This document shows, in pieces, positions 14,734-41,194 of a stretch of 49,548 nt of DNA. Under the pieces are notes generated by a model. The model was given only the letters and a program-made list of their open reading frames with translations, made no database searches and was not told the DNA's origin. The stretch is from Promethearchaeota archaeon (lineage in GTDB: Archaea; Asgardarchaeota; Lokiarchaeia; Sigyniarchaeales; SOKP01). Every line of letters starts with the position of its first letter. The stretch's first letter is position 1. Where the stretch lies: assembly GCA_016839745.1 (NCBI GenBank), contig JAEOTS010000188.1, positions 1-49,548 on the forward strand, written 5' to 3'. A program made the position numbers and the translations under genes.

Positions 14734-15246
14734 TTAAAGTTCCGTAAATAATTCAAAAATCTTACAGAATTCTTTGAAATTTTTTTCGACATCAACTACC
14801 GGCAGATATAATCCTTCACCTTGAGCAAAATCACTCGTAGTAATTATACCAGATATCATTTTAATATTTTCATTCAACTGTGATCCTATATGATTTAAAT
14901 CTTCTACACATAAAATAGTTGGGTAAGGTAGATTCCTAAAACTCTCAAAAAAAATCATATCTAATTTAAAGGGGCTGTCATCAAGCCATTGTATTAAATC
15001 GTCTAAAATGACTTCTTTCTTTAGAAAAATTGCACTTTCATCAAATCTATTTTTTATAATGGAAAAAACTGCGCCTGATTGAGAGAATCTAAACGAATCT
15101 TTTCCTTCTTCGTCGATCCGATGTTCGTGTATATATTTTATCACACCTACTTCAAGGTTAAGCTCAAACTTCAATTTCCTTATAAGATTTTCGATAAGAT
15201 ATGTCTTTCCACTCCCTGAATACCCAATTACACTAATTATTCTAAT
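14734..15246 (-). CDS. mobB: Molybdopterin-guanine dinucleotide biosynthesis protein B; start extended to ATT
   Basis: In-frame extension upstream of the ORF-track start gives IRIISVIGYSGSGKTYLIE (P-loop), followed by VGVIK..H, D.EGKDSFRF..SGA, D...FESF; GGTGG 6 nt before ATT. Confidence 0.85.
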   Translation of the reverse strand: MRIISVIGYSGSGKTYLIENLIRKLKFELNLEVGVIKYIHEHRIDEEGKDSFRFSQSGAVFSIIKNRFDESAIFLKKEVILDDLIQWLDDSPFKLDMIFFESFRNLPYPTILCVEDLNHIGSQLNENIKMISGIITTSDFAQGEGLYLPVVDVEKNFKEFCKIFELFTEL

Positions 15247-15364
15247 AAAAAACCACCAAATCTTAGATTTTGAAAAACAAGAGATTTAATATAATTATTA
15301 ATATCTAAAAAGTGTTAAAAGAATTAACTTTACGTTAAGATGAAAGAAAAAGTTCCTCGTAATT

Positions 15365-17362
15365 ATGCCTAGTAAAAATGAAATAATCGTGTTCGATGCA
15401 AATTTTTTTATTTGTATGAATTCTATTAGAGCAAAAAATATTCTGGGAAATTTAGAACAAGCAGGTTCAGATTTAGGGTTTAAATATTATATTAGCGCCG
15501 TTGTATTTGATGAAATTAAAGCGCCTACTACTTTTCGAGAAAAATTTCAAAAAGTAATAAATGTTGAAAAGATTGAAAGTTTAGAAATTGAATCTATTAA
15601 AAACGATCTTAGTGAGCATGGTATTCGTTTTCCTGCTCAAGATCCGGATTTATCCTTGTTATCTTTATCTCAGAAATTACTTGGTGATGATCATCGTTCT
15701 ATTAATTTAGTTTCTGACGATTTTAAACTCGTTAAAAACGCTAATTTGTTCTTCCACGGAAAGATAAACATTTTATCTCTGTCCAGTTTTCTATTAAAAA
15801 TTCATAGAACAATTTCTAATAAGCAACTACGGAGCTATTTCAAAAACACATGGAAGAAAAGTTTGAACTACACGCTTTCTTATATGATAGAACGCTCTAA
15901 GATTTATCCTGCTGAAGAAAAAATAACATGGTTAATTGAAAAGGCGATTAGTGTGACACAAGATTCAATAATAACCCAAGATGCACATTATATGGATAGT
16001 CAAAAACAGCCCGTCAAGTTTGAAATTGGTGCAAGCAAATACGAGCAAGAAATCACAATTTGTGAAAAATATATTGAAAACCAGAAACTGGCAAATAGTG
16101 AAGAGGAGCTCGTATCTGGAATAATAAATTTCCTTGAAAATTTAAAAATCTCTCGCGAATATGTAAAAGAAGCTCGTAAAGCGATTGAGAAACACGATTC
16201 TAAAAACGCTGTGAAATATTTAAAGAAGGGGAATGGTTTCTTAATTTCACTTTTGCAAATAGCCTCTGGTCAATTAACTAATTTAAAGGAGTACGATATC
16301 GTGGAACAGTTGATATGTAGCGAAATTTCAAAAATGGAATTCTTAAGGGCCTTTATTTTAATTTCTTTAGGAAGAGTAAATAACGCTATAGATTCTTTGG
16401 AAAGAGCAGCGCTATTTTCTACAATAATTCATAATCATCAAACGTGTTTGACTTTAAATTATGTAAAGGCTCTGATCTTGTTATTTCATGGGCTCTACAA
16501 TAATGCTATAATGGCTTATAATTTTACGGAAGAACTCGCTGATATCTATAACGACGAACGCCTTAAACTCAAATGTGCAATTGGAAAAAGTATAGCGCTT
16601 TACATTCAAGGTGAAGATGGCGAGACGGCTATGGCGATTATGGAAGAAATTTCAGCCATGGATATGGAGAAGAACTTTTTAGACGCTATCATCGTCTTTA
16701 GTGAACTTGGAGATTATTTTTTAGCACTAGGTCATTCCCAATTAGCTGCAAATCTTTACAACGAGGCTCTAGAAATCAGTATTGACTATAAACTAAAAAT
16801 CAGGAGCGATATCTTAATAGAAAAGTTAAAACGCTCTTACATCGCGACCGTTTTGAATGGATACTCTACAGAAGATATTATGGTTGATAAATTAGATGTT
16901 TTGCTTAATAAAGCGTATTCAGTAAAAGATGTAGAGAAATATAACGAACAAATCAAGAAGATTTCAAGTTTTAATGTTCTCTTTTACACACCTTTCCCTT
17001 ACATTACAGGGAAAAAAAAAATAGTTCCTTATATCAAACTTCCCAAAGAGTTACAAGACGATTACTTAGAAGTAGTTCACTTTGAAAAGTTGAAGAGTAA
17101 CGGTGCCTCTAAGTATCTTTTCATAGTCTCTCATTACGAATTAGGCTTGTTAGGAATCATTCTAAAAACAGATGAAACTGTGATAGGAATCGCTGAAAAC
17201 TACACGTTAAAAATTAAGCCTACATCTAAGGTTAAAATTTACAATCCGAGCGAAGCATTAAGAGATACCTATTTAATCAGAGCAATTATCGAAGTTATAA
17301 ATAAAAATGAATGCGAAATTATATACTCATTGCCCTCTTTCTTTAAAGCACTAAATATATAA
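15365..17362 (+). CDS. PIN-domain nuclease fused to TPR-like repeats
   Basis: N-terminal VFDANF, ISAVVFDEI, QDPDLSL, LVSDDFKL; central TPR-like helices (LGRVNNAIDSLERA, LGDYFLALGHSQLAANLYNEAL). Confidence 0.75.
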   Translation: MPSKNEIIVFDANFFICMNSIRAKNILGNLEQAGSDLGFKYYISAVVFDEIKAPTTFREKFQKVINVEKIESLEIESIKNDLSEHGIRFPAQDPDLSLLSLSQKLLGDDHRSINLVSDDFKLVKNANLFFHGKINILSLSSFLLKIHRTISNKQLRSYFKNTWKKSLNYTLSYMIERSKIYPAEEKITWLIEKAISVTQDSIITQDAHYMDSQKQPVKFEIGASKYEQEITICEKYIENQKLANSEEELVSGIINFLENLKISREYVKEARKAIEKHDSKNAVKYLKKGNGFLISLLQIASGQLTNLKEYDIVEQLICSEISKMEFLRAFILISLGRVNNAIDSLERAALFSTIIHNHQTCLTLNYVKALILLFHGLYNNAIMAYNFTEELADIYNDERLKLKCAIGKSIALYIQGEDGETAMAIMEEISAMDMEKNFLDAIIVFSELGDYFLALGHSQLAANLYNEALEISIDYKLKIRSDILIEKLKRSYIATVLNGYSTEDIMVDKLDVLLNKAYSVKDVEKYNEQIKKISSFNVLFYTPFPYITGKKKIVPYIKLPKELQDDYLEVVHFEKLKSNGASKYLFIVSHYELGLLGIILKTDETVIGIAENYTLKIKPTSKVKIYNPSEALRDTYLIRAIIEVINKNECEIIYSLPSFFKALNI

Positions 17363-17363
17363 C

Positions 17364-17636
17364 TTAATTTTTTCTTAATTGCTTATCTCGTTGGCTAACT
17401 TGATGGCTGTGAACAGCGCAGCTTATACAATAATATTTTTTCGTAGTTGGGGATTGAATAATCGTCCCAGTCTTCTTCAGTTCAGCATACATTCTACCAT
17501 CAACTAAAGAAGTTCGCCTAGTTACTGCCTTAGCCTTACTCCGAGGAACAGAACGGCCACATTTACTGCATTGTACATTGTTATAGCTTCCCTTACTTGA
17601 GCCGGTTTTACCGCCACTTCTTCTTTTCTTTGGAAT
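17364..17636 (-). CDS. rps26e: 30S ribosomal protein eS26 (missed by ORF track; ATT start)
   Basis: Manual translation (I/M)PKKRRSGGKTGSSKGSYNNVQCSKCGRSVPRSKAK...YYCISCAVHSHQV..R, 90 aa, Zn finger CxxC...CxxC. Confidence 0.95.
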   Translation of the reverse strand: MPKKRRSGGKTGSSKGSYNNVQCSKCGRSVPRSKAKAVTRRTSLVDGRMYAELKKTGTIIQSPTTKKYYCISCAVHSHQVSQRDKQLRKN

Positions 17637-17769
17637 GATTTTTTCAGCTTTTTTCTATTATCGTCTATTTCTACATCTTAGAATAGGACAAACCTTAAAA
17701 AATTTATTCTTTCGCTCCGAAAATTAGCAATTATTAGCGCTATGAAGGTTTCGCTAATAAATTTAGTAA

Positions 17770-18453
17770 TTAATTTTTATCGTGCGTTTCATTTTTGCTT
17801 AATGATTTGAAGGAAAATATTAATCTTTGAATTACGGTTAAAAGAAGTAGTCCTGTGAAGATTAATGTGAATATGGGGAAAAACAACGTGAAAGGAGTTC
17901 CATAAAAAAGGTTTGATAAATAAAAAATCCAAAATTCAGCGATAAAAGCAAACCACAATATAATTAATCTCTCGGCTCTTTCCATAAAGCCTACTCCTTT
18001 CATCTCAATTCCTTCGTTTTCAGCTCTCGCTCGAATATACGAAATCATAAGAATTAAAAATAGGATCATAAATCCTATAACGTAATTAAAATACCCCCCC
18101 ATTATTAACCCTAAGACTATTGCGGCATCAGAAAGTCGGTCTAGGTTTGAATCTAAAAACGCTCCTGATTTTGAAATATTATCTGTCTTCCGAGCTACTT
18201 CTCCGTCAAAGACATCAAAAGCACCTGCCCAGAACATCACAAATGGGACAATCCACGCTAAGGGAAAAGGAAAATGTAACCCCCCCCATGCAAGTAAAAC
18301 AGCAACTGCTATTGAACAGAAAAAACCACAAAACGATAAAATATTTGGTGTAAACCCATGTTTAATTAACAATTTAACCGGAAGATCAACAAATCTATTT
18401 AGAACTCTTCGTTGATTATTCCTCTTAATATTAGCTTGTTCAGATTTGCTCAA
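17770..18453 (-). CDS. CDP-alcohol phosphatidyltransferase (archaetidylinositol phosphate synthase-like)
   Basis: TPN.LS, DVFDGEVAR...SKSGAFLDSNLDRLSD, SYIRARAE, GFMERAER. Confidence 0.92.
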   Translation of the reverse strand: MSKSEQANIKRNNQRRVLNRFVDLPVKLLIKHGFTPNILSFCGFFCSIAVAVLLAWGGLHFPFPLAWIVPFVMFWAGAFDVFDGEVARKTDNISKSGAFLDSNLDRLSDAAIVLGLIMGGYFNYVIGFMILFLILMISYIRARAENEGIEMKGVGFMERAERLIILWFAFIAEFWIFYLSNLFYGTPFTLFFPIFTLIFTGLLLLTVIQRLIFSFKSLSKNETHDKN

Positions 18454-18517
18454 TATTTCTGCCTAAATTGTTATTAACGATAATTAAATTTAAAAGTACT
18501 CTATAATAAAAAATTTT

Positions 18518-19117
18518 TCATATTAATAATTGCAAATTCATTTTAATTAACCGAATCGTAGAGGATGCTAAATAAGAGCGATTTCCTAGGCTCAAGTTGG
18601 TCAAATTCAACTTTTTCAATTCTTTATTGTTTAGGAGATCACCACTTTGATCTCCTAGAATAAATAGCAATTTATCCTTTGAATTCATTTTCTCAAAAAC
18701 TTCTTTAAAATCCATCCCATTCTCGTTTAACACATAAATTTGATATTTTTTTTCAACGAAGTTTTTAATCGCGTCAAATATGCTTAAATTCGAATATTTA
18801 ACTGCGTCCAAAGGAGTTTCGGGATACTTTTCTCGCTTTTTCGTTTTTTTAATAAATTCTACAAAAAAATCTGTTAAAAGAATTTCGTTTTTTGGGAAAT
18901 ACTCATCACTAAACAGATCAGAGTCAAAAATAAATGTTCCATACTCATCCAGAAAAATCCAAATCTGGATATTTTCTTCAAGATTGTTTCCCGTTGTAAG
19001 TGCCGATAGGATACACCTTGAGATAACATCAAGTCTTCCAGAGGATCCTGGGATATCTTTAATATTATATTTGCTAATATCAACTGTTCCTGATTTTACG
19101 AAGAAAATTAATTTCAT
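18518..19117 (-). CDS. trmY: tRNA (pseudouridine54-N1)-methyltransferase, SPOUT family
   Basis: DIPGSSGRLDVISRC, L.E.G.D, FILGDQSG, SLG..SYLAS. Confidence 0.85.
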   Translation of the reverse strand: MKLIFFVKSGTVDISKYNIKDIPGSSGRLDVISRCILSALTTGNNLEENIQIWIFLDEYGTFIFDSDLFSDEYFPKNEILLTDFFVEFIKKTKKREKYPETPLDAVKYSNLSIFDAIKNFVEKKYQIYVLNENGMDFKEVFEKMNSKDKLLFILGDQSGDLLNNKELKKLNLTNLSLGNRSYLASSTIRLIKMNLQLLI

Positions 19118-19226
19118 TAATTTAAGATAAAACTATTTTTTTTAAAATGGTATTATAAACTTGAGAATTTACCATTTGAATAAATCCTTTGTTTTTCAGA
19201 AGTGATGTCACCTCTGAAATTACAGG

Positions 19227-19535
19227 TTATGTTAATTTGCTTCTCTTAAAGCGAGTAATTAGATAAAATGTACCCATTAATACTACTATAGAAAGAACAA
19301 TGCCGACTATTCCTGCAATATAATCGTTGGTAAGCCAACTTAAAAAAGGAATCCAAGGAGAAAATAGATTTTCAAGCCATTCTTCACTGTAATAATCCGT
19401 TAAAACTCTTTCTAACCCATCAGGATTTTCAGAAAGAAATCCAATTCTAAACCCTACTGCTAATACAAACATTAGTGTAGTAATTATAATCAGAATTGTG
19501 ATTAAAGGCCATTTATTCCTTTTGATTACACCCAT
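19227..19535 (-). CDS. PDGLE-domain Co/Ni ECF accessory subunit (CbiN/NikN-like)
   Basis: Two TM helices flanking SENPDGLE; directly downstream of cbiM. Confidence 0.85.
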   Translation of the reverse strand: MGVIKRNKWPLITILIIITTLMFVLAVGFRIGFLSENPDGLERVLTDYYSEEWLENLFSPWIPFLSWLTNDYIAGIVGIVLSIVVLMGTFYLITRFKRSKLT

Positions 19536-19538
19536 TTT

Positions 19539-20210
19539 TTATTTCACCTTGAGGAGTGATTCAGTTGTAATAAATTCAGGCTTGGTTTTATAAATATAAT
19601 ATACAATTAAAGCAGAAATTATTCCCTCACCGATACCTATTAGGATATGCCAAAAAGCCATAACCGGAACGGCAATTTCAATTGGAATTTTGCCACTAAT
19701 AGCAAGTTCAATACCACACACGATAGAAGCTAAAACAATAGCGATATAAGAACCTATACCAGTTGCAATTGTAAGTTTAAGTTCCTTTTTTATTGATGTT
19801 TTATTTAAAAGTTTTACGAATAGCATAACTAAATAGAAACCGAAAATACCACCAATTATTCCCATATTGAAAGCGTTTGCTCCCAACGCGGTGATTCCTC
19901 CATCTCCAAAAAGACTTTGAATAACTAATATTAAAAATAATACTATAACTGATGCCCAAGGACCAAGGATTATAGCTACTAAAGTGCCTCCTACTAAATG
20001 CCCAGATGTACCTCCTGGTATCGGGTAATTAACAAATTGGAAAGCAAATATAACTGCTGCAAGAACCCCTATGTAAGGGATTAATTTTTCAGAATCTTCC
20101 TTTTCAAAAATGTGACCCATTTTAAAATAGCCAAAAATCATAACTGTTATCGAAACGACCCAAAGCACCATAGTAGTGAAAGGATCTAATAATCCATCAG
20201 GTAAATGCAT
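19539..20210 (-). CDS. cbiM: Co/Ni ECF transporter S component
   Basis: Metal-binding N-terminus MHLPDG, PGGTSGHLVGG, GDGGITALGAN, HILIGIGEG. Confidence 0.93.
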   Translation of the reverse strand: MHLPDGLLDPFTTMVLWVVSITVMIFGYFKMGHIFEKEDSEKLIPYIGVLAAVIFAFQFVNYPIPGGTSGHLVGGTLVAIILGPWASVIVLFLILVIQSLFGDGGITALGANAFNMGIIGGIFGFYLVMLFVKLLNKTSIKKELKLTIATGIGSYIAIVLASIVCGIELAISGKIPIEIAVPVMAFWHILIGIGEGIISALIVYYIYKTKPEFITTESLLKVK

Positions 20211-20399
20211 ATTTTATTTCTCTATATTTTATTATCGATTAATTTTTTTGTCATGAATAATATTTTATCATAATTTAGTATTATTTATAAACGATATGAT
20301 AAATTTATATTTTAATATGAAGATTCATTTTGAAATCACTCGAGATTTATCTATGAAAGTTTCTTACGAATTTCGCTAATACATCGATTATTAAGGAGA

Positions 20400-21215
20400 T
20401 TGAAAAAATTGGATATAGAATTACCTTTCAAACACGAAGATGAAAAGAATTTTTTGAATAAAATTCATCCATTAATTCGTTTTTTGCTCCCCTTTATTTT
20501 TGTGATTCCTTTCCTAATTATTGATGATGTTTATTTAGTAATTACGACTATTTTCTTGGTTTTAATTATTAATCTGGTTTTTCACTTACATCTATTAAGG
20601 ATAATTTCAAAACTAAGAGCTTTACTTCCCTTTATTTTGGTCATTACAATTTTTATTCCTTTCTATGTAGGAAACACGGTAATTTATCAGTTAAAAATAG
20701 GAATTTCACTAAATATTTATAAAGAAGGATTAAATTTTGCTTTAATTTTATTTTTTCGAATTATAGGGGCAGCATTTGTATTCTTAACATTTCTAGCATC
20801 ATTAACTTATTCTGAATTTATTGAAGCATTAACTAAATTAAGAGCAATTCCCCCCTTTTTTATAGGTAGTATAGTTATCATGCTTCATTACATCCCAATT
20901 CTAGCAAAATCTAATAGAAAAGTACTGGAAGCACAAGATTTAAGAGGTAAAAACTTTACATCGTATTGGCAAAGGCTTAAAACTCATGCGTTCATAATGG
21001 GAAAGAATATAGTACACAATATGGAAAGAAGCGAGATTTTATATGAGAGCTTAAAAATGAGGGGCTTTTCTGGTAAAATCACCTTTTCTTCAAAGAAAAT
21101 AAAATTAGCTGATATACTAATAGTAATACTGTTTTTGTCTATTATCGTTTCTCTCATCTACTTTGTAAATCTAAAACAGATATATATGGAGGTTTTAAAA
21201 TTATTTATCTTATAG
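20400..21215 (+). CDS. cbiQ: ECF transporter T component
   Basis: IHP..R, TM helices, AQDLRG and SLKMRGFSG motifs; GGAG before TTG. Confidence 0.88.
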   Translation: MKKLDIELPFKHEDEKNFLNKIHPLIRFLLPFIFVIPFLIIDDVYLVITTIFLVLIINLVFHLHLLRIISKLRALLPFILVITIFIPFYVGNTVIYQLKIGISLNIYKEGLNFALILFFRIIGAAFVFLTFLASLTYSEFIEALTKLRAIPPFFIGSIVIMLHYIPILAKSNRKVLEAQDLRGKNFTSYWQRLKTHAFIMGKNIVHNMERSEILYESLKMRGFSGKITFSSKKIKLADILIVILFLSIIVSLIYFVNLKQIYMEVLKLFIL

Positions 21216-21952
21216 AAGTGAAAAACTTGAATTTTGATTATAATTCAAATTTTTCTATTGACGATTTATCATTAAAAATTGAAGAAAATTCAATCTATGC
21301 TCTAACAGGAAATAACGGGTCAGGTAAAACAACCTTACTTAGATTATTAGTTGGTTTACTGAAACCTAAATCTGGAACTATTAGAATTTTTAACGAAATC
21401 TTAACAAGAGACAGAAATCAATTATGGAAGTTACGCCAAAAAATTGGTTTTCTCTTTCAAAATCCTGACGATCAATTATTTGCTCCAACTATAAGAGAAG
21501 ATATAGGTTTTGGAGCAAGGAATCTTGGACTTGAAGAACCTGAAGTGAACAAGAGAGTTGAATGGGCGCTCGAGGCTGTTAATTTAACGCAATATGGCAA
21601 AAATTCTCCATACGATTTATCTTGGGGACAGAAGAAACGAGCTGCTTTAGCAGGGTTATTAGTAATGAAGCCTAAATTATTAATACTAGACGAACCCTTC
21701 GCAAATCTTGATTATAAATCAATATATAACCACCTACAAATTTTCAAAACTCTTAAAAAAGAACAAAAAATGACAATTTTATTTACTACTCACAATCTTT
21801 TTTTTATAGAGAATTGGGCAGATAAAATGCTTGTTTTAAATGATGGAAAAGCTATATTCGAAGGCATTCCTAAGGATGGATTAAATCATCCTAAAATCAA
21901 GCAATTATTGGGTTCGTATAGTGAACTCTTAACTCTTATTAACCAAAAGTAA
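21200..21952 (+). CDS. cbiO: ECF transporter ATPase (start probably ATT 21200; GTG 21218 alternative)
   Basis: GNNGSGKT, FQNPDDQLF, LSWGQKKR, ILDEP, TTH. Confidence 0.92.
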   Translation: MIYLIEVKNLNFDYNSNFSIDDLSLKIEENSIYALTGNNGSGKTTLLRLLVGLLKPKSGTIRIFNEILTRDRNQLWKLRQKIGFLFQNPDDQLFAPTIREDIGFGARNLGLEEPEVNKRVEWALEAVNLTQYGKNSPYDLSWGQKKRAALAGLLVMKPKLLILDEPFANLDYKSIYNHLQIFKTLKKEQKMTILFTTHNLFFIENWADKMLVLNDGKAIFEGIPKDGLNHPKIKQLLGSYSELLTLINQK

Positions 21953-22008
21953 TTTAATTTTCTACTAAATAGAATAAATTTTTTAGCTTGTTTTTAATAT
22001 TATTATTT

Positions 22009-22315
22009 GGGAAAATGATGATGGAACATCCGCATATTCGAGGACGCGTATGATAACCCGTGATTACGCGTGCAAAGTTATGCAAACATCCTGAGTTTAT
22101 TAATCAATATTCATCCTGTAAAAATGGGCTCTTAATCTAGCTATGGTAATACCGTGCGATGAGATTGGAGTCAGCACCCAGGCAGGGTACATGATTATGC
22201 CCCAAAAAGGCATAGAAATTACCGCCTAGCACGAGAGAACTAATTTGATTTATGGTATTACCATTAGATGATAAATTTGTGTTAGTGTTCTTAGGCAACA
22301 ATATATGCTGATTTC
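22009..22315 (+). ncRNA. Candidate large structured box C/D-type RNA
   Basis: Box C ATGATGA 22015-22021, box D CTGA 22308-22311, terminal stem GGAA/TTTC, several internal helices, GC content above flanks, no long ORF. Confidence 0.6.
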
Positions 22316-22355
22316 ATAAAGAAACAAAGTTTCATACAGAATAATAGAACATCTT

Positions 22356-22832
22356 TTATAGAAGGCTAATTGTGTCTGAATTAAAAAGCTCTTTTAATTC
22401 TTTATTCATTTCTCCTTTTTCTTCTTGAAGATATCTATCCAACACAGTAGAAATCTTGTGAGAATATTTGTTCATAATTGCTCTTACAAGTCCTATTTGA
22501 ATATTTTTATCGGTTGCAATACATAAGATGCCCTTCCCAACCTTGAGTGAAAAGATCATTCCTTTAAAATATTCAGTTATCTGTAAATGTATATTTCCAT
22601 ACCCTAAAATATATCCTTGCTCTTCTCCAGCCGTAAATACCGCTCCTCCAATTGCTCCTATTTTTTCAACGGAAATATCTTCTTCGGTAGAAGACTTCAA
22701 AATGAATTTAGACTCACTCATAATAGTTATACCTGTATCATCTATGATTATTACATATTTCAAGCCAGGAGTGCTATTAATAATTTCCTTCAAGAGCTTT
22801 TTCAAAATACGCTCATCCTGAGAATAACTCAA
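22356..22832 (-). CDS. Roadblock/LC7 (MglB-like) domain protein
   Basis: PGLKYVIIIDDTGITI, EKIGAIGGAVFTAGE, ITEYFKGMIF, LCIATDKNIQIGLV. Confidence 0.88.
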   Translation of the reverse strand: MSYSQDERILKKLLKEIINSTPGLKYVIIIDDTGITIMSESKFILKSSTEEDISVEKIGAIGGAVFTAGEEQGYILGYGNIHLQITEYFKGMIFSLKVGKGILCIATDKNIQIGLVRAIMNKYSHKISTVLDRYLQEEKGEMNKELKELFNSDTISLL

Positions 22833-23011
22833 TTGCTTACACCTTTTTTTAAGCGCGTTTGGATAATATTCAGCGTGTCTTATTATCTTATTATTTTAAA
22901 ATGAATTTATTTAAAGTAAACTGTAGTCTTTTACTACTTTCTTAATATAAAAATAAAAGTATATATATAAAAACTTAATTCACATGAAATAAATTCATGT
23001 TCCGCAACGAA

Positions 23012-23368: not shown

Positions 23369-23513
23369 TCTATCATACCTATAAAAACCAATTGATCTAT
23401 AAAACTAAATTTAGCAAAAAGTCTTTAAATGGTATATTATCACGATATTATAAAAAAAAAAAAGAGAAAAAGAATGTTTGAAAAATATTTCTTTCGAAAT
23501 TAGTTTGAAGTGA

Positions 23514-24470
23514 TTATTTTTTTTGGATTCCAAGATTTAAGTTTTCTATCAGTTCTTGAAACCTATTCCTGACTGTTACCTCTGTCACTTGGGACACTTT
23601 GGCAATTATCCTTTGTGTCCTCCTTTCTTCAGACAAGATACTTGCAACATAGATAGCTGCTGCGCATACACCAGTTGGACCCCTTCCTGAAGTCAAACCC
23701 CTTAATTCAGCCATTTTAATAACTTTTTTAGCCATTTTATGACATTCGGTAGAAAGTTCCAATTCAGATACAAACCGAGTAAGAAAATCCAAAGGTTTTG
23801 TAGGATTTAAATTTAATTCTAATTCTTTTGAAATAAATCGATAGGATCGCCCAATCTCTTTTTTGTTGACTCTAGCGACTTCTGCGATCTCATTTAAAGT
23901 GCGTGGGACTTTGTACATCCTACATGCGGCGTAAAGACTTGCAGCAGCAACTCCTTCAATGCTCCGCCCCCTAATTAGATGAGCTTCAACAGCATCTCTA
24001 TAGATTTTAGCAGAACATTCGCGAAGATTTTTCTGAAGATCGAGATTTGATGCCATTCGATCTAATTCACTTAACGCAAAAGTTAGGTTTCGTTCGGTGG
24101 CATCGGAGACCCTAATCCGACTTTGCCACTTTCTTAGGCGATATATTTGACCTCTGATTTTAGCAGAAATCTCCTTACCAAAAATATCCCTATTTTTCCA
24201 GTCAATCATTGTACTGAGTCCTTTGTCATGGATCATATAAGTCATAGGCGCGCCAGTTCTTGTTCTTTTCTTTTTTTGATCTGAATCAAAAGCACGCCAT
24301 TCTGGACCCTGGTCAATGTGTTTTTCTGAGTGAACTAGTCCACATTTTTCACATACTAATAAACCTCTATTTTCATCAAATAAAATATTTTCACCGCATT
24401 CACCACAATTGTTATAACTTTGCTCCTGATTTTCTTCTACGAGAGCATTACTTTGATTCCAACTTGAAAT
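23514..24470 (-). CDS. tfb: Transcription initiation factor IIB (TFB); start extended to ATT
   Basis: In-frame upstream extension CGECG...LVCEKCGLV...[13 protein letters not shown], then [37 protein letters not shown]. Confidence 0.95.
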
Positions 24471-24519
24471 AATCTACACCTTTTTTAAAGATTTTTTTTT
24501 AAGAAAAGTTCCTAACATG

Positions 24520-33254: not shown

Positions 33255-33352
33255 AGTTAACACTGAATGCCTTTAAAATCAGAAATTAAATAATAACAAC
33301 TAATAATAATTATATAAAATTAATTCAAGAATTTGAATAATTCGACATGAAT

Positions 33353-33640
33353 TTACTTAATCTTTTTTGGAAAAAAAACTAACCTTCCAGAAATAGAAGG
33401 TTGGTCAGAATTCTTATTTTCTTCGAAATAAAAATAAAATCTACCAATATCAGTATGGATTCTGTATTTATATTTCCTTTTTGTATTATTTGAAAGCCTT
33501 TTTAATAATTTATTGTTCCAATAAATACTCATACAACTGAAATCATAATCATAAAATAAAAAATCGCATTTTATGGAGATATTATAACCATGAAGGTCAA
33601 TTCTAATTTCATTCTTAAATTGACAAAAGATAAATTTAAT
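33353..33640 (-). CDS. Hypothetical small protein (95 aa from ATT, about 59 aa from ATG)
   Basis: Stop-free frame of 95+ codons in very AT-rich DNA: IKFIFCQFKNEIRIDLHGY...MSIYWNNKLLKR...FFPKKIK. Confidence 0.4.
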   Translation of the reverse strand: MKFIFCQFKNEIRIDLHGYNISIKCDFLFYDYDFSCMSIYWNNKLLKRLSNNTKRKYKYRIHTDIGRFYFYFEENKNSDQPSISGRLVFFPKKIK

Positions 33641-34062
33641 AAATTATTTTTATAAACATAATCATCAAAAAAATGTTGATTATTTATTGAGTTGCTAAAT
33701 AAATTTACCATTCATATTAATTATTAAAATTTTAATCGAATAAGTAAAATTTTCAAGAAACATCATCAATTAAATGAAATAATAAAAAAAATCAATTAAA
33801 AAAAAATTCAATTAAATTATTAAACTAAAATTATTATCCAGACTTATAACAATACACAGGAAGTAAATTCATAACTCAAGCTTAATAAAGATAAAAAAAC
33901 TATCTCAAAAGATAAAATATTAAAGATCTTAATTAGAGAAAATCAATTTAACGTTAGCTCCTATCCATTAGCAGGACTTTACTTCTTTTTATAAGTTTAT
34001 AATTAATTTTAGATTCATTAATAAGATCAAATATTAAATAGAAAAAATAAGTGATTAAAATT

Positions 34063-35232
34063 ATGTCTAATAATGTAGATTTTACTACTAAATACACTAT
34101 CGAAGCAAAATTTAAAATTAAAGGTGTCGTTGAGAAATCAGACATCGTTGGAGCGGTTTTTGGACAGACTGAGGGGCTGCTCTTAGACTTAGATTTGAGG
34201 GATCTTCAAAAATCTGGACGAATCGGGCGAATTGAGGTTGATAATGAATCTAAAGAAGGAGTTTCCGAAGGAATTATTCTAATTCCCTCTAGCTTAACTC
34301 GTAAAGAGACTGCTCTACTGGCGGCAACTGTTGAAACTGTTTCTCGTGTTGGTCCTTGTGAGGCTGAAATCAAATTATTGGAAATTCGAGATGTTAGAGA
34401 TACTAAACGCAAGAAAATTATTGAGCGTGCTGCAGAATTATTAAAAAAATGGGATCAGAATTCTTTAGAACATAGCGAAATCGAAGAAAGAATGGACGCA
34501 GGCATTAAAATTGGAGAAATTACATCTTGGGGTCCGGAAAACTTACCCGCAGGTCCCGATGTTGAATCTAGCCAAGAAATAATAATTGTTGAAGGTCGAG
34601 CAGATGTTTTAAACCTATTGCGAATAGGAGTTAAAAATACCATCGCAGTTCAGGGCACACAAGTACCCAAATCAATTTTAAAATTACTAGAAACAAAAAA
34701 ATCGGTCATAGCCTTTCTAGATGGGGATAGAGGTGGCACGATTATTTTAAATGAACTATTACAAGTCGCAAAACTTGATTATGTAGCTCGAGCACCGGAA
34801 GGTTTAGAAGTGGAAGAACTTACTCGGAAACAAATGATAAAATCTCTCCAAAACAAAAAACCAGCAGGAGTTAAAGATAAACGCACTACTAAAAATAAAA
34901 AAGAAGTTACAGGCAAGGATGCGCTATTCCAAAAACTCATGAAGAAGTTGAAAGTAAAAAATCAAACGCCATTAAAAGAAAGCCTTGAAAAAATAGAACC
35001 TGGGCACAGTATTGGGTTTAATAAGAATTTAGAGAAATTATTTGAAATTCCCGTAGGGGAAATCTTTGAAAAAATTAAAAATTTTAAAGATACACAATTT
35101 CTTGTAATAGATGGCATTTTATCTAAACGCTTGATTACACTTTTATTGCCTATGAAAATAAAATTTATTGCCTGCAAAAATAAGGAAGAAGAGCTCAGAG
35201 TTTCGCCTGAGATCACAGTTTTCTTCTTCTAA
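34063..35232 (+). CDS. dnaG: Archaeal DnaG-like primase / exosome-associated protein
   Basis: VGAVFGQTEGLL..DLRDLQKSGRIGRI, TOPRIM IIVEGRADV, FLDGDRGG, EVEEL. Confidence 0.95.
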   Translation: MSNNVDFTTKYTIEAKFKIKGVVEKSDIVGAVFGQTEGLLLDLDLRDLQKSGRIGRIEVDNESKEGVSEGIILIPSSLTRKETALLAATVETVSRVGPCEAEIKLLEIRDVRDTKRKKIIERAAELLKKWDQNSLEHSEIEERMDAGIKIGEITSWGPENLPAGPDVESSQEIIIVEGRADVLNLLRIGVKNTIAVQGTQVPKSILKLLETKKSVIAFLDGDRGGTIILNELLQVAKLDYVARAPEGLEVEELTRKQMIKSLQNKKPAGVKDKRTTKNKKEVTGKDALFQKLMKKLKVKNQTPLKESLEKIEPGHSIGFNKNLEKLFEIPVGEIFEKIKNFKDTQFLVIDGILSKRLITLLLPMKIKFIACKNKEEELRVSPEITVFFF

Positions 35233-35288
35233 AAGATACCTTCTTTTCTTTAAAACTTTTTTTTTTAATCCAATTTATTAGATATCAT

Positions 35289-35708
35289 TTATTTCTTTGT
35301 GCAATTCACATTAATAGGCAAGCCATTCGCGATCGAGTTTGTAACGATACAATATTCTGTAAATTCCTTCATACACCGATTAATCTCTACATCAGAATTA
35401 GTTTCCTTCGGTGTAAATTTCAAATCCACATCAACATTTACTAGTCTTAGAAGCATTTTCGGACCTGTGTGAGATAATGTTCCATCTACTACTACCTCAA
35501 ATGCTTCTATCTCTATATTATTCTTCTGTAGACAGTAAACAAAGGTTGTACCTAGGCAACCTCCTATACCAATTAATAAATACTCTACTGCACTCGGACC
35601 GAGATCTGTTCCGTGAAACGAAGCTGGCTCGTCGATGTTAAAATCCTTAAAATTTCTTGCAGAAGCTTTAAAATGAAGATTTTTGGAATAATCTAACAAT
35701 ACTTTCAT
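35289..35708 (-). CDS. OsmC/Ohr-family protein
   Basis: DEP...GTDLGPSAVEYLL.GIGGC and second Cys in YCIVTNSI. Confidence 0.88.
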   Translation of the reverse strand: MKVLLDYSKNLHFKASARNFKDFNIDEPASFHGTDLGPSAVEYLLIGIGGCLGTTFVYCLQKNNIEIEAFEVVVDGTLSHTGPKMLLRLVNVDVDLKFTPKETNSDVEINRCMKEFTEYCIVTNSIANGLPINVNCTKK

Positions 35709-35759
35709 TACAAATCATCTATAAAACCAATTTGTCTTTTTAATAAAAATGAAATTAAT

Positions 35760-36017
35760 TTATAAACTACCGATTCCCAAAACGGAATTAACTAGAGTAA
35801 AAATTAACTGAATAACATAGGATAATACTCCTAATACTAAAATTCCAATAGCACATATCTTAAAAACTAGAAAATATTCTTTCCTATTTGGTTTATTTGC
35901 TATTTTTATTATTCTTTTGGTATTTTGAAAGAAGACACCTATACGCTCGTAAAGGGATAATTTCTTGCCTTTATCGTATTTTGCATATTGGTCATACTTC
36001 GGGTAATTATTTGACAC
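35760..36017 (-). CDS. secE: Protein translocase SecE / Sec61 gamma
   Basis: RIIKIANKPNRKEY..V.KI.AIG...LG...Y.I, single C-terminal TM. Confidence 0.9.
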   Translation of the reverse strand: MSNNYPKYDQYAKYDKGKKLSLYERIGVFFQNTKRIIKIANKPNRKEYFLVFKICAIGILVLGVLSYVIQLIFTLVNSVLGIGSL

Positions 36018-36074
36018 AATTAAATTAAAAATAAATATTTAAAAAATTTAACTAATTAATTAGAATTTTCTTCT

Positions 36075-36977
36075 TTATTCTTCTCCAATATCAAGAATAT
36101 TTGAAATGAATAGTTCAGGATCGAATGGTTCTAAATCGTCATAACCTTGTCCTATTCCTATAAAAATAATAGGTTTTTTTGTTTCATAAGAAATAGATAA
36201 TGCGGCGCCTCCCTTTGCGTCAGCATCAAATTTAGTAAGGATATTTGCATCAATTCCGACGCTATTATTAAACTCCTTGGCTTGATTTAGTGCGTCATTT
36301 CCAGCTAAACTATCTCCAACAAATAAGGTTAAATCTGGTTCAGCTACTCTTACAATCTTTTGCATTTCTCTCATTAAATTTTTATTACTTACTTGTCTCC
36401 CAGCTGTATCCACTAAAACAACATTTACATTTTTTGCTTTTGCATGTTGTATAGCATCATAGGCGACACTCGCCGGATCTGATTTATACTCGTGCTTAAT
36501 AACTTTGATTCCAACATTTTGCATGTGATAAGAAAGCTGTTCGATTGCTGCAGCCCTAAATGTATCTGAAGCCGCAGCTACAGAAGAAATGTTATTTTTT
36601 TTCAGATAATGTGCAATTTTAGCAATTGTGGTAGTTTTACCTGTTCCGTTAACTCCTAAAAAACAAATTATGTATGGGTTGTTAGTTTTGTTCTTCTTCC
36701 TAATTTCTTCTAATAAATCGATGGTTCTCTCTGGAGTTAAAATTTCCGTAATTACATCTTTTAAAATTTCAAATAAGAATTTTCTTTTCGATGTTAGTCT
36801 ACCTATTTGTTCACCCTTAAGAGATAATTCTATTTTTTGGCATAGAATATCTGCTGTTTCTGTAGCTACATCATTTCCTATCAATAACAAATTCAGTTCA
36901 TTTAAAGCACTTTCTAGGCTTTCGGATGATAAAGTTTTTTTAACGAAAGCAGAGAAAACATTACTTAATTTCTTCAT
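36075..36977 (-). CDS. ftsY: SRP receptor FtsY (NG domain only)
   Basis: GVNGTGKTTTIAK, DTFRAAAIEQL, DTAGR, TKFD.DAKGG, GIGQGYDDL. Confidence 0.96.
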   Translation of the reverse strand: MKKLSNVFSAFVKKTLSSESLESALNELNLLLIGNDVATETADILCQKIELSLKGEQIGRLTSKRKFLFEILKDVITEILTPERTIDLLEEIRKKNKTNNPYIICFLGVNGTGKTTTIAKIAHYLKKNNISSVAAASDTFRAAAIEQLSYHMQNVGIKVIKHEYKSDPASVAYDAIQHAKAKNVNVVLVDTAGRQVSNKNLMREMQKIVRVAEPDLTLFVGDSLAGNDALNQAKEFNNSVGIDANILTKFDADAKGGAALSISYETKKPIIFIGIGQGYDDLEPFDPELFISNILDIGEE

Positions 36978-37029
36978 TAATATAACCGCTTGAATTGAAA
37001 ATCAATAACATCTTAAAAAAAGGTTAAAA

Positions 37030-37446
37030 TTATTGTTGAGTCATTCTACTTTGGAGTATTTGATTCATATTTTGAAGATTTAAATCTAAACTAAAAATTC
37101 TTTCTTGGAGAAATTTTAACTGGGTATTGTGTTGTTCAATAAGATTTGAGATAAATTCAATAGCTTCTTCAACGGATTTTTCAATTATCGTATCATTTTT
37201 CACATACACAAGAACTTTTTTAGTGTCTTTTATTGTTGCTTTTATACTAGCTAAACCCCCAATTGGGACCAGAATTTCATCATTTTCTTTAACACCTTCT
37301 TTGAGGTTATCTAAAGTTAGTTTAGTTGTGTATAAATTCCCAAGAGAAGCATTTATTATTTCAAATTGGCCTTGAAACATGTCTCTTTGTTCTTTAAAAT
37401 ACCGATATTGGCTTAATTGTTGTTCTAAATTTTGATTGTTTTCCAT
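37030..37446 (-). CDS. pfdA: Prefoldin alpha subunit
   Basis: Coiled coils flanking EILVPIGG...KVLV; position between LX and ftsY. Confidence 0.88.
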   Translation of the reverse strand: MENNQNLEQQLSQYRYFKEQRDMFQGQFEIINASLGNLYTTKLTLDNLKEGVKENDEILVPIGGLASIKATIKDTKKVLVYVKNDTIIEKSVEEAIEFISNLIEQHNTQLKFLQERIFSLDLNLQNMNQILQSRMTQQ

Positions 37447-37476
37447 AAAAAATCAATAAAAGATGTGAATAGTTTT

Positions 37477-37704
37477 CTATTTAGATAATTCTCTAATCAA
37501 ATAATCTTGACACTCTTCTGGAGTTATTTCTTTTATTTCTTGAATACTAATTTGTCTTCTAAGAATACCTATCGATGTAATTTGACTCAACGCTTTTTCT
37601 AAAGCATCTTTCTCTTTTAGAGCTCGAACCTCTTTCCGAAATAAATATTTTTTATACTTTTTCCTGTAAGTACCAATAATCCGATAAATTTTAATCTCTG
37701 ACAT
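37477..37704 (-). CDS. rplX: 50S ribosomal protein LX (L18Ae/eL20)
   Basis: KIYRIIG...FRKEVRALKEKDALEK..S...RRQISI.EIKEI. Confidence 0.88.
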   Translation of the reverse strand: MSEIKIYRIIGTYRKKYKKYLFRKEVRALKEKDALEKALSQITSIGILRRQISIQEIKEITPEECQDYLIRELSK

Positions 37705-37811
37705 AAGTTTTCAATTCCTGAGAATCCACGTAGTTAAAAATGATAATTATTTTAAAAATATTAAATTTTGCTTTTTTATTGGACAATAATACAACGCTAA
37801 AGAATTAAGCC

Positions 37812-38492
37812 CTATAACATTAATACATTAGTTAAACGCATCATCTCAGGACCTGTGCATTCATTTCCAAAAATGCCGCTCTGATCGTTAACTATTGCTC
37901 CTGAAGAGAGATAAGGAAATCCTCTATTAACTGTTGATACGTCAGCTTCCTCTACTTTTAAAATCTCCGAAATGATCTCAATCTCTTCATCAGTGGTAAG
38001 TGGATGAACTAGGCACCCTTTATTGTTAGTCAACGATATAGAACCTGGGAGATTGTTATTAACAAATTCATAGACAACAGTTTCAACCTTTAAAGTATCT
38101 TCAATTAGTTCTTTATAATCCTTTAAAAAAGAAGAAATTATAGCACCTTTATCGTTACATAGTATTAAATTACCAAAGGCATTATCCAAAGATTCCAGAA
38201 TCCCGATTTGATAACCACTATTTAACTCTTCTGAATACATTTTTAATTGTTGAAGTTCGTCTTCCCTAATAATGTGGGGTACGATGATTCCATATTTATT
38301 ACTAGCAGTATACACTCCGATTAAATTGGAATTATTAATCGAAAAAGGATAAAACGGTACCTTGAATACACTTTCAATTTTCTCGACAGTTGGTTTAAGT
38401 AGTGTAGATGGATATAAACCAAATAAGTTATTAACTGCTAAGTAAACACCTACTGAATTCTTACCAAATATCTGGTACTTTAAAATCGTCAT
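37812..38492 (-). CDS. eif6: Translation factor aIF6
   Basis: SNLIG, GNLILCNDKGA, NNKGCLVHP, TVNRG, TGPEM. Confidence 0.93.
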   Translation of the reverse strand: MTILKYQIFGKNSVGVYLAVNNLFGLYPSTLLKPTVEKIESVFKVPFYPFSINNSNLIGVYTASNKYGIIVPHIIREDELQQLKMYSEELNSGYQIGILESLDNAFGNLILCNDKGAIISSFLKDYKELIEDTLKVETVVYEFVNNNLPGSISLTNNKGCLVHPLTTDEEIEIISEILKVEEADVSTVNRGFPYLSSGAIVNDQSGIFGNECTGPEMMRLTNVLML

Positions 38493-38694
38493 TTAATAAA
38501 ACTAAGAAAATTATTATATGATGGATAAAGTTCTAAACCATAAATATTTTATTAAAAATGCGTAGGTTTAATGAATTTGCTATTAATCTTCCATAATCTC
38601 CTTTCTTATATTCTTTCGGTTATTGTTTTAATCTCGCTAGAGAATTTATTTTACTCATAAATCTTTATAAGTGAGTTAGATGCTATTATGAAAT

Positions 38695-40944
38695 ATGATA
38701 AATTGGATTATTGCATTCTTCTATTTTCTAGAAGAACTTGGATTTTTAAAAATTGAAGACATTCTTACAAAGAACCTTCCAATTTTGTTAATTTGCAGAG
38801 GACTCTATTGCCTTACCTATGTTCTGAATTATCGTGAGGGCTTTTCGCGCGAAAATAACGACAGAAAATTATTATTTACTCAAAAAGAGACAGGATTCTT
38901 TATTCTAAAGCAATTAATGATAATACTCTTTGGAACAATCCATATCGTTTTTACTTTGTTTATTAGCTTCTATTCCTTAATGATCAGTGGAAGATACATC
39001 AATAATCTCGCCGAAAAACAAAAAATTAGATTGCTAACAATTTTAGGAAAACTTATAACCTTTTTCGCTCCGATATTAGGTATTTTATGGTACACCTTTA
39101 TAGAGTCAGATTTATATTCACTTGCTGCTATTGGAGTGAGTATATTCGCTTTTCTCCACTATGGATTAAAAATTTCCTCCCTTTCTCTGCCTAAAATCTT
39201 AGAAAAATATAGTAAAAGGCGTATTGAGAAAATTCCTAAAATTGCCCAATATATTCTGCTAGTTTTTTTAATTGCTTTCCCTACAACGGTAATAATAGGT
39301 ACTGGAGTCTATAAATCTCAAGAAAAACAGACGTTCATGGTACCTATGCGAGATAGTATTAGATTAGCTACAGATGTCTATTTTGCACCTGGATCATTTG
39401 GTGCACCCCGTCCTGTTGTATTAATTAGGACTCCTTATGGTAAATCTGGTTGGGCAGATGATTTATACTCTCCTATCTACTTAAATCAAGATTATCATCT
39501 AGTTGTACAAGATTTAAGGGGCACTCACGATTCTGAGGGGGGAGAAAGCTTTCTTCTTTTTGTAAATTCGTATAAAGATGGCGTTGACACTATTGATTGG
39601 ATTTTAGATCAAAGCTGGTCTAATGGGAAAATTGCTAGTGCAGGAGTCTCTGCTTTATGTCTTAACCAATATTACTACGCAGGGATGGGTCCCGATGGAT
39701 TGTTGGCTCAACAATTATGGTTTGGCACACCAGAAATGTTTGACCATGCTATTTTCCAAGGATCTTATCATAAATCTTCTGTTGAAACTTGGGTAAAGAG
39801 TACTAGTCCCAGTAATTGGGAATATCAAATTGATACGCTTTTTAGTCTAACAATTCCAAAGAACGAAATTCTCTACAACTCGACATCGTTATCTAATCCT
39901 ATAGGACCTCACTATTCAAATGTTTCCGTCTACGGAATTCATGTTGGTGGCTGGTACGATCATTTTTTACAAGGTACCATCGATGGGTATATTGGATACG
40001 ATGACTATGGGGCTACCAGGGCACAAGGGCATCAAAAATTGGTGATGGGACCATGGACTCATGGTTCGATTTATGGCGGGCAACAAGGAGAGTTATTCTA
40101 TCCTGATAATTCTAATGGATTCGATTTATTGCTCGATTGGGAAATTGGAATCTTTGACGAAGCTTTATTAGGGATTCCTACCGATTGGACCGGTGCGAGA
40201 GTTGCTTATTATCTAATGGGTGATGTAGATGTTAGTTCGGATGATTGGAATTACTGGCGTTATGCTTATGATTGGCCATTAGATTACGTAAACGATACAT
40301 GGTATCTCACTGCAGATAAAGGATTAAGTAAAACTTCTGCCGGTTTAATGAATGCAAATTTTTCTTATTTATACGATCCCAGATACCCTGTTCCAAACGT
40401 AGGAGGACAAAATCAACCGTTTGATCTGGCAGGGCCTATGGATCAATCATCGATTGAAAACAGATCTGATGTTTTAATATTTGAGACCACTGAATTAACA
40501 GATAACGTGGAAACCGTTGGAAGAATTTGGGGTAATCTAGTTGTAACTTCAAATTGTACTGACACTGATTTTACTATCAAGTTAACCGATGTCTACCCAG
40601 ACGGGAGTTCTATGTTAGTAACAGACGGTTCTTTAACTGTTAGATATAGATATAATTACACTTCGGAAGTGTTTATGTCCGGGGATCAAATTACTACTTA
40701 TGATCTATTAATCGATTGTTGGTCAACTGCTTATACATTTGCTAAAGGGCATAAAATAAGAGTAGCTATTTCAAGCTCTAACTATCCTCGTTTTGCAAAA
40801 AACCCTAACACAGGAGCACCACTAGCCAGAGATTATTTAAATTTTAACATCGCGAATAATACTCTCCTTGTCGGACCACCGTACAATTCAAGCATCATCT
40901 TACCGAGATTAGTAAATATGAGTAGCACTCATACAATTTATTAA
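38695..40944 (+). CDS. Membrane-anchored CocE/NonD (Xaa-Pro dipeptidyl-peptidase-like) hydrolase
   Basis: PMRD.IRLATDVY, RTPYG, QDLRG..DSEG, WSNGK, GVSA, GWYD, GPWTHG, YDP..PVP, SSSNYPRF; N-terminal TM segments. Confidence 0.88.
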   Translation: MINWIIAFFYFLEELGFLKIEDILTKNLPILLICRGLYCLTYVLNYREGFSRENNDRKLLFTQKETGFFILKQLMIILFGTIHIVFTLFISFYSLMISGRYINNLAEKQKIRLLTILGKLITFFAPILGILWYTFIESDLYSLAAIGVSIFAFLHYGLKISSLSLPKILEKYSKRRIEKIPKIAQYILLVFLIAFPTTVIIGTGVYKSQEKQTFMVPMRDSIRLATDVYFAPGSFGAPRPVVLIRTPYGKSGWADDLYSPIYLNQDYHLVVQDLRGTHDSEGGESFLLFVNSYKDGVDTIDWILDQSWSNGKIASAGVSALCLNQYYYAGMGPDGLLAQQLWFGTPEMFDHAIFQGSYHKSSVETWVKSTSPSNWEYQIDTLFSLTIPKNEILYNSTSLSNPIGPHYSNVSVYGIHVGGWYDHFLQGTIDGYIGYDDYGATRAQGHQKLVMGPWTHGSIYGGQQGELFYPDNSNGFDLLLDWEIGIFDEALLGIPTDWTGARVAYYLMGDVDVSSDDWNYWRYAYDWPLDYVNDTWYLTADKGLSKTSAGLMNANFSYLYDPRYPVPNVGGQNQPFDLAGPMDQSSIENRSDVLIFETTELTDNVETVGRIWGNLVVTSNCTDTDFTIKLTDVYPDGSSMLVTDGSLTVRYRYNYTSEVFMSGDQITTYDLLIDCWSTAYTFAKGHKIRVAISSSNYPRFAKNPNTGAPLARDYLNFNIANNTLLVGPPYNSSIILPRLVNMSSTHTIY

Positions 40945-40957
40945 TTCTTTTTTTTTT

Positions 40958-41194
40958 TTATTTTAACATTTTTAGAAATTCTGTTTCATCAATGAAAGTT
41001 ACCCCTAACTTGCGCGCTTTATTATAATTTTTAGTTTCACCTTTAGAATCATTTGTGACTAAATACCACAGATCAGTAGAAATCTCTTCTCTTACAGTAC
41101 CTCCTTTCTCAATTACTTTTCTCTGCGCTTCTTCTTTATCCATTGTTTCTAGATCTGACGAAAAATAAAATTTTATTAACGATAAATCTGCTAT
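40958..41194 (-). CDS. Stand-alone BRCT-domain protein (ligase/RFC type); start probably ATA
   Basis: DLSLIKFYFSSDLETMDKEEAQRKVIEKGG...YLVTND....K.Y.KARKLGV.FIDE.EFL.ML. Confidence 0.8.
   Translation of the reverse strand: MADLSLIKFYFSSDLETMDKEEAQRKVIEKGGTVREEISTDLWYLVTNDSKGETKNYNKARKLGVTFIDETEFLKMLK

Follow-up and report, generated by a model that had tools for sequence, protein, structure and literature searches.

ATT and ATA start codons in a Lokiarchaeia genome: comparative evidence for routine non-NTG initiation at Shine-Dalgarno spacing

The stretch of DNA analyzed here raises the question whether five of its genes start translation at ATT or ATA instead of ATG, GTG or TTG (canonical codons). 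This stretch, referred to as the window, comprises 49,548 nucleotides (nt) of a Promethearchaeota archaeon belonging to the Lokiarchaeia (order Sigyniarchaeales; assembly GCA_016839745.1, contig JAEOTS010000188.1) and is contig C180 of a metagenome-assembled genome (MAG; label G000) of 3.53 Mb, 192 contigs and 32% GC, with 89% completeness and 5.8% contamination. The five genes encode MobB, ribosomal protein S26e (rps26e), an ABC transporter ATPase (cbiO), the TFIIB homologue TFB (tfb) and a stand-alone BRCT-domain protein, and make up about 10% of the ca. 48 genes of the window. Judged by their sequences, all five almost certainly begin at ATT or ATA, mostly behind a ribosome-binding site, and non-NTG starts are probably used genome-wide by about 100 to a few hundred genes. 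We consider it very likely that AUU (mobB, rps26e, cbiO, tfb) and AUA (BRCT) serve as translation starts and that such starts are routine, genome-wide and positioned by the Shine-Dalgarno (SD) sequence.

An initial annotation had claimed that the five genes carry conserved N-terminal sequence upstream of any in-frame canonical codon and downstream of an in-frame stop. Pfam searches and inspection of the frames between stops bore this out, and every one of the five listed ATT/ATA codons was found in place (Table 1). In mobB, position 1 of the Pfam profile corresponds to residue 3 and the P-loop (GYSGSGKT) is encoded before the first TTG (15174). The S26e profile begins at residue 1 of rps26e, the first ATG of which is codon 55 of the open frame. 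The zinc ribbon of TFB spans residues 22-61 and, like the B-reader, precedes the first ATG (codon 76, 24245). For the BRCT gene, the Pfam domain begins at residue 7 and the first ATG is codon 18 (41143). The ABC_tran domain of cbiO was confirmed as well, but this gene is the weak case since a GTG is found five to six codons downstream.

Orthologs were gathered from 30 relatives, of which 18 are congeneric species and 12 represent three further families of the order. The codons flanking the homologous N-terminus were then compared, within the genus across 15-17 independently assembled genomes. Turnover of the start column was seen for all five genes. In the aligned genus orthologs, this column contains solely ATT, ATA, ATG, GTG and TTG, which interchange, and stops are located one to three codons upstream in many species. 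A column that is restricted to start-type codons across independent assemblies and flanked by stops has the hallmarks of a start codon, which excludes sequencing error, pseudogenes and downstream initiation.

The tfb gene gave the most uniform picture, with ATT in 14 and ATA in two of 16 genus orthologs and ATG in the other families. An SD-like motif is located 6-7 nt before the column in the genus (AGGTG in 13, GGGTG or GGGAG in three), the codon preceding the start varies (ATT, GCT, TTT, AAT) and a TAG or TAA is mostly found one to two codons upstream. Two side observations were made for this gene. The in-frame GTG of the SD, immediately followed by TAG or TAA, forms a minimal start-stop element in most genus-mates (window 24474-24481; loci L003-L016). 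Further, this genome contains seven TFB/TFIIB-like matches and its genus-mates 3-10, among which the ATT-started copy of the window is the best conserved across the genus.

In case of rps26e, the column of the first methionine (before PKKRR) reads ATT in nine, ATG in four and TTG in two of 15 genus copies including its own, and ATG, GTG or TTG in other families, where ATT was encountered once. The sequence aaGCTGA is kept in genus-mates 6-7 nt ahead of the column. A conserved TATA-like element about 60 nt upstream of the ATT implies that the transcript has a leader. With a leader implied here and an SD upstream of the other four genes, leaderless initiation would not fit and was rejected. One genus-mate, G005, was found to have two rps26e copies (G005:C36 and G005:C67; L028 and L047), one starting with ATG and one with TTG, which may reflect a strain mixture in a MAG of about 8% contamination.

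For the BRCT gene, the window copy and 11 genus copies (n=12) show ATA five times, ATT once and ATG six times. Two near-identical relatives, G014 (ATA) and G015 (ATG), differ at the start codon in an otherwise identical context. No BRCT ortholog was found in the other families of the order that were compared. Matches to mobB were obtained in 17 genus genomes. The start column of the clear orthologs holds ATG ten times, GTG twice and TTG twice, as opposed to the ATT of the window, and the two closest relatives have GTG within an identical GGTGG-TTTTTT context. Two further orthologs have a longer, GTG-led N-terminus, and mobB of other families was not comparable.

The cbiO comparison upheld initiation at ATT while moving the start by one codon relative to the initial annotation, from ATT 21200 to ATT 21203, the codon that relatives conserve. 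ATT 21203 is kept in all 14 aligned genus orthologs, two of these carry a TAA two codons upstream, and the GTG at window position 21218 is not conserved, reading GTA, GTC or GTT in nine of the 14. Taken together, this identifies ATT 21203 as the cbiO start. In relatives, its SD reads GG(A/G)GGT, AGGGGT, AGAGGT or TGAGGT. The 3' end of cbiQ (stop 21213-21215) reaches past the cbiO start, and no cbiO ortholog was found in the other families compared.

Table 1. Features of the window and of genome G000 discussed in the text. Locations without a contig label are window positions; d is the distance from the first G of the common SD register to the start codon.
Feature	Location	Strand	Proposed start	Next canonical codon	Remarks
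mobB	14734-15246	-	ATT 15246-15244		170 amino acids (aa)
SD-like motif of mobB	15253-15257	-			GGTGG, 6 nt before ATT; d=14
rps26e	17364-17636	-	ATT 17636-17634		90 aa
SD-like motif of rps26e	17644-17648	-			GCTGA, degenerate, weak match to GGTGA; 7 nt before ATT
cbiO (cbiO/ecfA-type ABC ATPase)	21203-21952	+	ATT 21203 most likely; alternative ATT 21200		
SD of cbiO	21188-21193	+			GGAGGT, inside cbiQ 3' end; d=15 to ATT 21203, d=12 to ATT 21200
tfb (TFIIB homologue)	23514-24470	-	ATT 24470-24468		318 aa
SD of tfb	24477-24481	-			AGGTG; its GTG is in frame, TAG 24476-24474 directly after
BRCT (stand-alone domain)	40958-41194	-	ATA 41194-41192		78 aa
SD of BRCT	41201-41207	-			AAGGTGA, d=14; its TGA is the in-frame upstream stop
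Initiator tRNA gene	G000:C94:7810-7934	+			intron of ca. 49 nt after position 37
pheT			ATA	+18	
Ras-family GTPase	C20:36604-37158		ATT	+24	L179
Rag/Gtr1-like GTPase	C20:11601-12530		ATT	+33	L181
Pop5			ATA	+21	
V-ATPase D			GCG	+29	two mismatches to AUG; at SD-optimal position
hisB	G000:C88:141-743		ACG	+51	L187; IGPD domain from residue 32
Metallophosphoesterase			ATT	+101	
DeoC-type aldolase			ATT	+26	
Response regulator			ATC	+12	
rps8			ATA	+7	
gatB/E-like	G000:C155:4183-5634		only CTG nearby	+197	L195; d=13 from SD; GatB_N from residue 8

The spacing between SD and start codon was calibrated on the rest of the genome. Confident ATG starts are preceded by an excess of G between positions -14 and -8, and SD words peak at a fixed GGAGGTGA register, with the start codon 14-15 nt from its first G. 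The anti-SD was inferred from this SD consensus upstream of ATG genes because no GGATCACCTCC motif (anti-SD of the 16S 3' end) was present anywhere in the MAG. Four of the window genes have an SD, as the initial annotation had claimed, but its spacing of exactly 6 nt results from measuring to different motif ends. On the common register, d is 13-15 for mobB, tfb, BRCT and cbiO, compared with a modal d of 14-15 for ATG genes, while rps26e has only GCTGA.

Using this register, we scanned in-frame codons of open frames of at least 100 codons that lie at least seven codons upstream of the first canonical codon, with SD matches of at least 5 nt. ATT, ATA and ATC (collectively ATH) peak sharply at d=14-15 only and remain at background elsewhere, while AT-rich control codons are flat. 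Compared with expected counts derived from off-peak offsets within the same frames, we observed 28 ATT (12.3 expected), 24 ATA (9.2 expected), 8 ATC (3.7 expected) and 8 ACG (0.7 expected). For ATH as a whole, 60 observed codons stand against 25 expected (Fisher odds ratio 2.8, p = 2e-8). No other codon was enriched at SD spacing, and reversed, complemented and scrambled control motifs gave no ATH enrichment (odds ratios of 1.1, 1.0 and 0.6).

A census was taken of SD-led open frames that have a stop close upstream. It yielded 377 canonical, 71 ATH-only and seven ACG-only frames for SDs of at least 5 nt, and 132, 34 and three, respectively, for SDs of at least 6 nt. After subtraction of chance matches, the ATH share of SD-led genes is ca. 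7% at 5 nt, 22% at 6 nt and 24% at an SD of 7 nt or more, so that ATH starts are concentrated behind the longest SDs. In SD-led genes, ATH codons as a group match or exceed GTG in frequency. Pairwise mapping of the first methionine from the outgroup genome G026, described below, to G000 gave two clear ATH among 38 pairs, and the reverse mapping one in 43; this mapping is noisy as N-termini differ in length, and it provides only a crude homology-based lower bound of 2-5% of genes. The combined counts support ATT, ATA, ATC and ACG as routine start codons in this genome, apparently used by roughly 3-5% of all genes as a minimum and by about 20% of those with the longest SDs, housekeeping genes included.

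Twenty census candidates were scanned against Pfam from the proposed near-cognate codon. For 10-11 of them, the Pfam match opens at or close to model position 1, among the first residues of the protein and ahead of the first canonical codon (Table 1). The Ras-family and Rag/Gtr1-like GTPases, both of eukaryotic-signature type, have their P-loops upstream of the first canonical codon, and truncated calls would consequently lose nucleotide binding. Genes for ATPase subunits D and E were both encountered in the census, while an rps4 fragment located at a contig end (L180) had no Pfam match.

The outgroup G026, a closed genome from another family of the order (31% GC, 1.2 Mb sampled), shares the SD register and spacing. 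Its ATH peak is insignificant (9 observed, 7.5 expected, odds ratio 1.3). As GC content is equal and no significant peak is seen, AT-richness alone does not create the signal and was rejected as its sole cause. The ratio of ATH to canonical SD-led frames is 14:133 in G026 and 71:377 in G000, i.e. about half as high in the outgroup (p = 0.06). Even so, two genes of G026 have non-NTG starts where G000 has ATG, namely ATC in rpoA1 (next canonical codon +26) and an Ile codon in rps19e. A MazF-like toxin gene of G026 also appears to start at ATT (sample L118-L177). By these comparisons, the habit is present across the order, apparently stronger in this genus and no by-product of AT-richness. The initial annotation had described it as an ATT/ATA trait of the lineage. 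It reaches beyond the genus, given the ATC and Ile-codon starts of G026, and the codon set additionally takes in ACG and ATC.

We then inspected the initiation machinery. The initiator tRNA, one of the checks suggested by the initial annotation, is canonical. It is encoded by a single-copy gene and has a CAU anticodon, A1:U72 and G29-31:C39-41 in the anticodon stem. The gene was located by hand with a loosened pattern, as a strict anticodon-arm pattern gave no match, ARAGORN with and without introns reported 11-16 tRNAs but no tRNA-Met in the MAG, and Rfam RF00005 retrieved 21 tRNAs in the MAG and missed the initiator. A tRNA-Gly(UCC) gene within the window (44283-44354, + strand) is the second-best RF00005 match of the genome. 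No second initiator-like tRNA gene was found in this genome, and an alternative initiator tRNA was rejected as the cause. The sole SUI1/aIF1 gene (G000:C94) has no ATG, GTG or TTG before its zinc knuckle; codons 4 and 9 in its open frame are ATT. Its product aligns well to M. jannaschii aIF1 (4mo0) and retains the zinc knuckle and basic loop. The initial annotation had proposed relaxed start-codon selection positioned by the SD. Systematic SD-positioned ATT/ATA initiation is supported by start-column turnover, spacing-specific enrichment and the further Pfam-confirmed genes, whereas relaxed selection itself can only be suggested, with a canonical initiator tRNA and an aIF1 free of obvious defects.

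Based on these findings, initiation may be pictured as follows. Pairing between SD and anti-SD would anchor the small ribosomal subunit and place the near-cognate codon, 13-15 nt from the first G of the GGAGGTGA register, in the P site. The ordinary initiator tRNA (CAU) would then pair despite the third-position mismatch, so that the protein would still start with methionine. Start-codon proofreading by aIF1 would be set permissively in this lineage. We lean towards such a permissive setting, and thus towards relaxed proofreading rather than compensation of weak codons by long SDs, because housekeeping genes are affected and because the ATG/ATA flips in close relatives look near-neutral. A broader form of this idea is that initiation in Lokiarchaeia is constitutively permissive, AUU, AUA, AUC and ACG being efficient, near-neutral alternatives to AUG whenever the SD fixes the P site, and that this state is held by the AUU start of aIF1 itself. 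It would then represent an archaeal counterpart, possibly a forerunner, of the eIF1 poor-context feedback of eukaryotes. We offer this extension tentatively.

Several explanations compete with this picture. Proofreading could be ordinary and each ATH codon a weak start (about 10% of AUG, comparable to infC and pcnB of bacteria or ccpN and cvfC1 of S. aureus) that tunes expression down gene by gene, partly compensated by a long SD. The rise of the ATH share with SD length is what would be expected if a strong SD offsets a weak codon, aIF1 looks intact, rps26e has switched from ATT to ATG or TTG in several lineages, and in S. aureus all four non-canonical starts stand behind extended SDs and reach ca. 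10% of AUG output (PMC13009471). On the other hand, S. aureus has only these four (PMC13009471), and the number of genes here is one to two orders of magnitude above that of any bacterium in the literature consulted. A tenfold attenuation also seems implausible for highly expressed housekeeping genes such as rps26e, rps8, pheT and tfb here or rpoA1 and rps19e in G026, and the ATA/ATG flip between G014 and G015 in identical context looks close to neutral. Gene-by-gene attenuation is thus a possible but doubtful account. For cbiO only, start identity may matter little if translation is coupled to cbiQ by termination and reinitiation. The two genes overlap at this point, with the SD of cbiO inside cbiQ and the cbiQ stop 8 nt past the codon ATT 21203, and tight coupling is described as established for overlapping archaeal gene pairs (PMC10666635). 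Still, we regard coupling as unlikely to explain this start, since the SD-ATT arrangement (d=15) is conserved as in stand-alone genes. The remaining four genes are each preceded by an AT-rich intergenic region, which rules out coupling for them.

Initiation at the first downstream canonical codon, with the conserved upstream sequence left untranslated and N-terminally truncated proteins as the result, would agree with public BRCT calls, which use the downstream ATG, and with the GTG five codons after ATT 21203 in cbiO. This is very improbable. Truncation would delete the P-loop of MobB, the zinc ribbon and B-reader of TFB, the first BRCT strand and, in S26e, over half of the protein together with the cysteines that bind zinc. 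Moreover, the upstream segments are conserved at the protein level, with synonymous changes, across at least 15 species, and the cbiO GTG is not conserved. That the ATT and ATA codons stem from errors of assembly or sequencing (an ATG with its G misread as T or A), or that the genes are pseudogenes, might be suspected from the draft state of the MAG, with its contig number, completeness and contamination as given above, yet the chance of this is close to nil. The same ATT or ATA occurs in up to 15 other independently assembled species-level genomes, reading frames are intact and under purifying selection, and an enrichment specific to SD spacing speaks against this explanation as well. Assembly error and pseudogenes were excluded by this conservation across MAGs.

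A number of observations weigh against routine, SD-positioned initiation at these codons and should be considered with it. Its entire basis is comparative or statistical. In three relatives, the stop is missing, so that the in-frame GTG of the SD itself is open upstream of the tfb ATT and may be used as the start. As the SD of rps26e is only degenerate, SD positioning does not account for every case. The contrast between G000 and G026 is only suggestive. A hexamer-mixture estimate of coding potential upstream of the first canonical codon gave 10-17% for G000 and 10-14% for G026; it depends on the threshold, does not separate the two genomes and was not relied on. Finally, the alignment to M. 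jannaschii aIF1 revealed no sign of relaxed proofreading in the aIF1 sequence.

For genome annotation, the consequences of SD-positioned ATH initiation are tangible. The initial annotation had stated that standard gene callers truncate or miss such genes. This holds for the BRCT gene, whose public form is the ATG-truncated 61-aa protein (window 40958-41143, - strand), found in an 18-member cluster, but it is not universal. Some relatives' NCBI TFB entries (P0019, P0021; compared with locus L002) start with M at the ATT column, so that at least one pipeline sometimes calls ATT, and in further entries the start was placed at a GTG or TTG lying downstream or at the GTG of the SD itself. The ATG-truncated forms of TFB (243 aa) and S26e (42 aa) had no exact match in the public collection. 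Some members of the BRCT cluster were named 'DNA ligase (NAD+)' by JGI, a label that is a domain-transfer misnomer for a stand-alone BRCT protein.

Non-NTG starts are treated as rare curiosities in prokaryotes, and are ignored by the most widely used gene finders. If one in 10-20 genes of an Asgard lineage starts with ATT, ATA, ATC or ACG, the proteomes used in studies of eukaryogenesis hold many truncated or missed proteins, including TFB, ribosomal proteins and Ras/Rag-like GTPases. The errors would carry over into domain inventories, predicted structures and constructs for expression, and one tubulin study already repaired such a start by hand (PMC13394414). Should the permissive setting be true, a tenth of Asgard proteins, eukaryotic signature small GTPases among them, would be mis-annotated at their N-termini. 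It would also pose the mechanistic question of how the aIF1/aIF1A/aIF2 system, more closely related to the eukaryotic scanning machinery than any other in prokaryotes, copes with a third-position mismatch, and whether the AUU start of aIF1 acts as a feedback comparable to those of IF3 and eIF1.

Full-text literature searches turned up no systematic account of ATH starts in Asgard archaea. The nearest case is AtubA from a MAG of the Kariarchaeaceae (Heimdall-type Asgard), for which a 'rare ATT start codon' was reported: the deposited protein is too short and an upstream ATT at plausible spacing from a ribosome-binding site restores the first beta strand (PMC13394414). That report concerns a single gene, is given in a methods section, calls the codon rare and makes no genome- or lineage-wide claim (PMC13394414). 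Ribosome profiling of Haloferax volcanii assigned ca. 30% of putative alternative initiation sites to near-cognate codons (PMC7261190). These were alternative or internal sites, which the authors left aside as potential false positives (PMC7261190), unlike the sole starts of conserved core genes described here. The genes of the window also recall animal mitochondria, where the genome is likewise AT-rich and ATH codons routinely start translation. In mitochondria, a single tRNA-Met with a modified C34 serves initiation as well as elongation, and an SD is not known to be used. In contrast, a dedicated canonical initiator tRNA is present here and the SD positions the codon, so that a single tRNA-Met in both roles does not apply to this genome.

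The closest parallel is found in bacteria. As for the AUU/AUA starts of E. coli infC and pcnB and those of S. aureus, the AUH codon stands at normal distance behind a strong or extended SD and is conserved among relatives (PMC13009471). In S. aureus, infC, cvfC1, ccpN and citZ have SD-dependent AUU/AUA starts of about 10% efficiency and a regulatory role (PMC13009471). Bacteria thus use such codons in a handful of genes, whereas tens to hundreds appear to be affected here, including those for ribosomal proteins, TFB and a tRNA synthetase subunit, and the machinery that reads them is archaeal (aIF1, aIF1A, aIF2) instead of the bacterial IF3. Like infC, which encodes IF3, the gene for the fidelity factor itself seems to use such a codon in this lineage, as aIF1 has no canonical start before its zinc knuckle. 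The arrangement matches the AUU/AUA start with autoregulation known from infC, and by analogy a feedback of this kind can be hypothesized for Lokiarchaeia.

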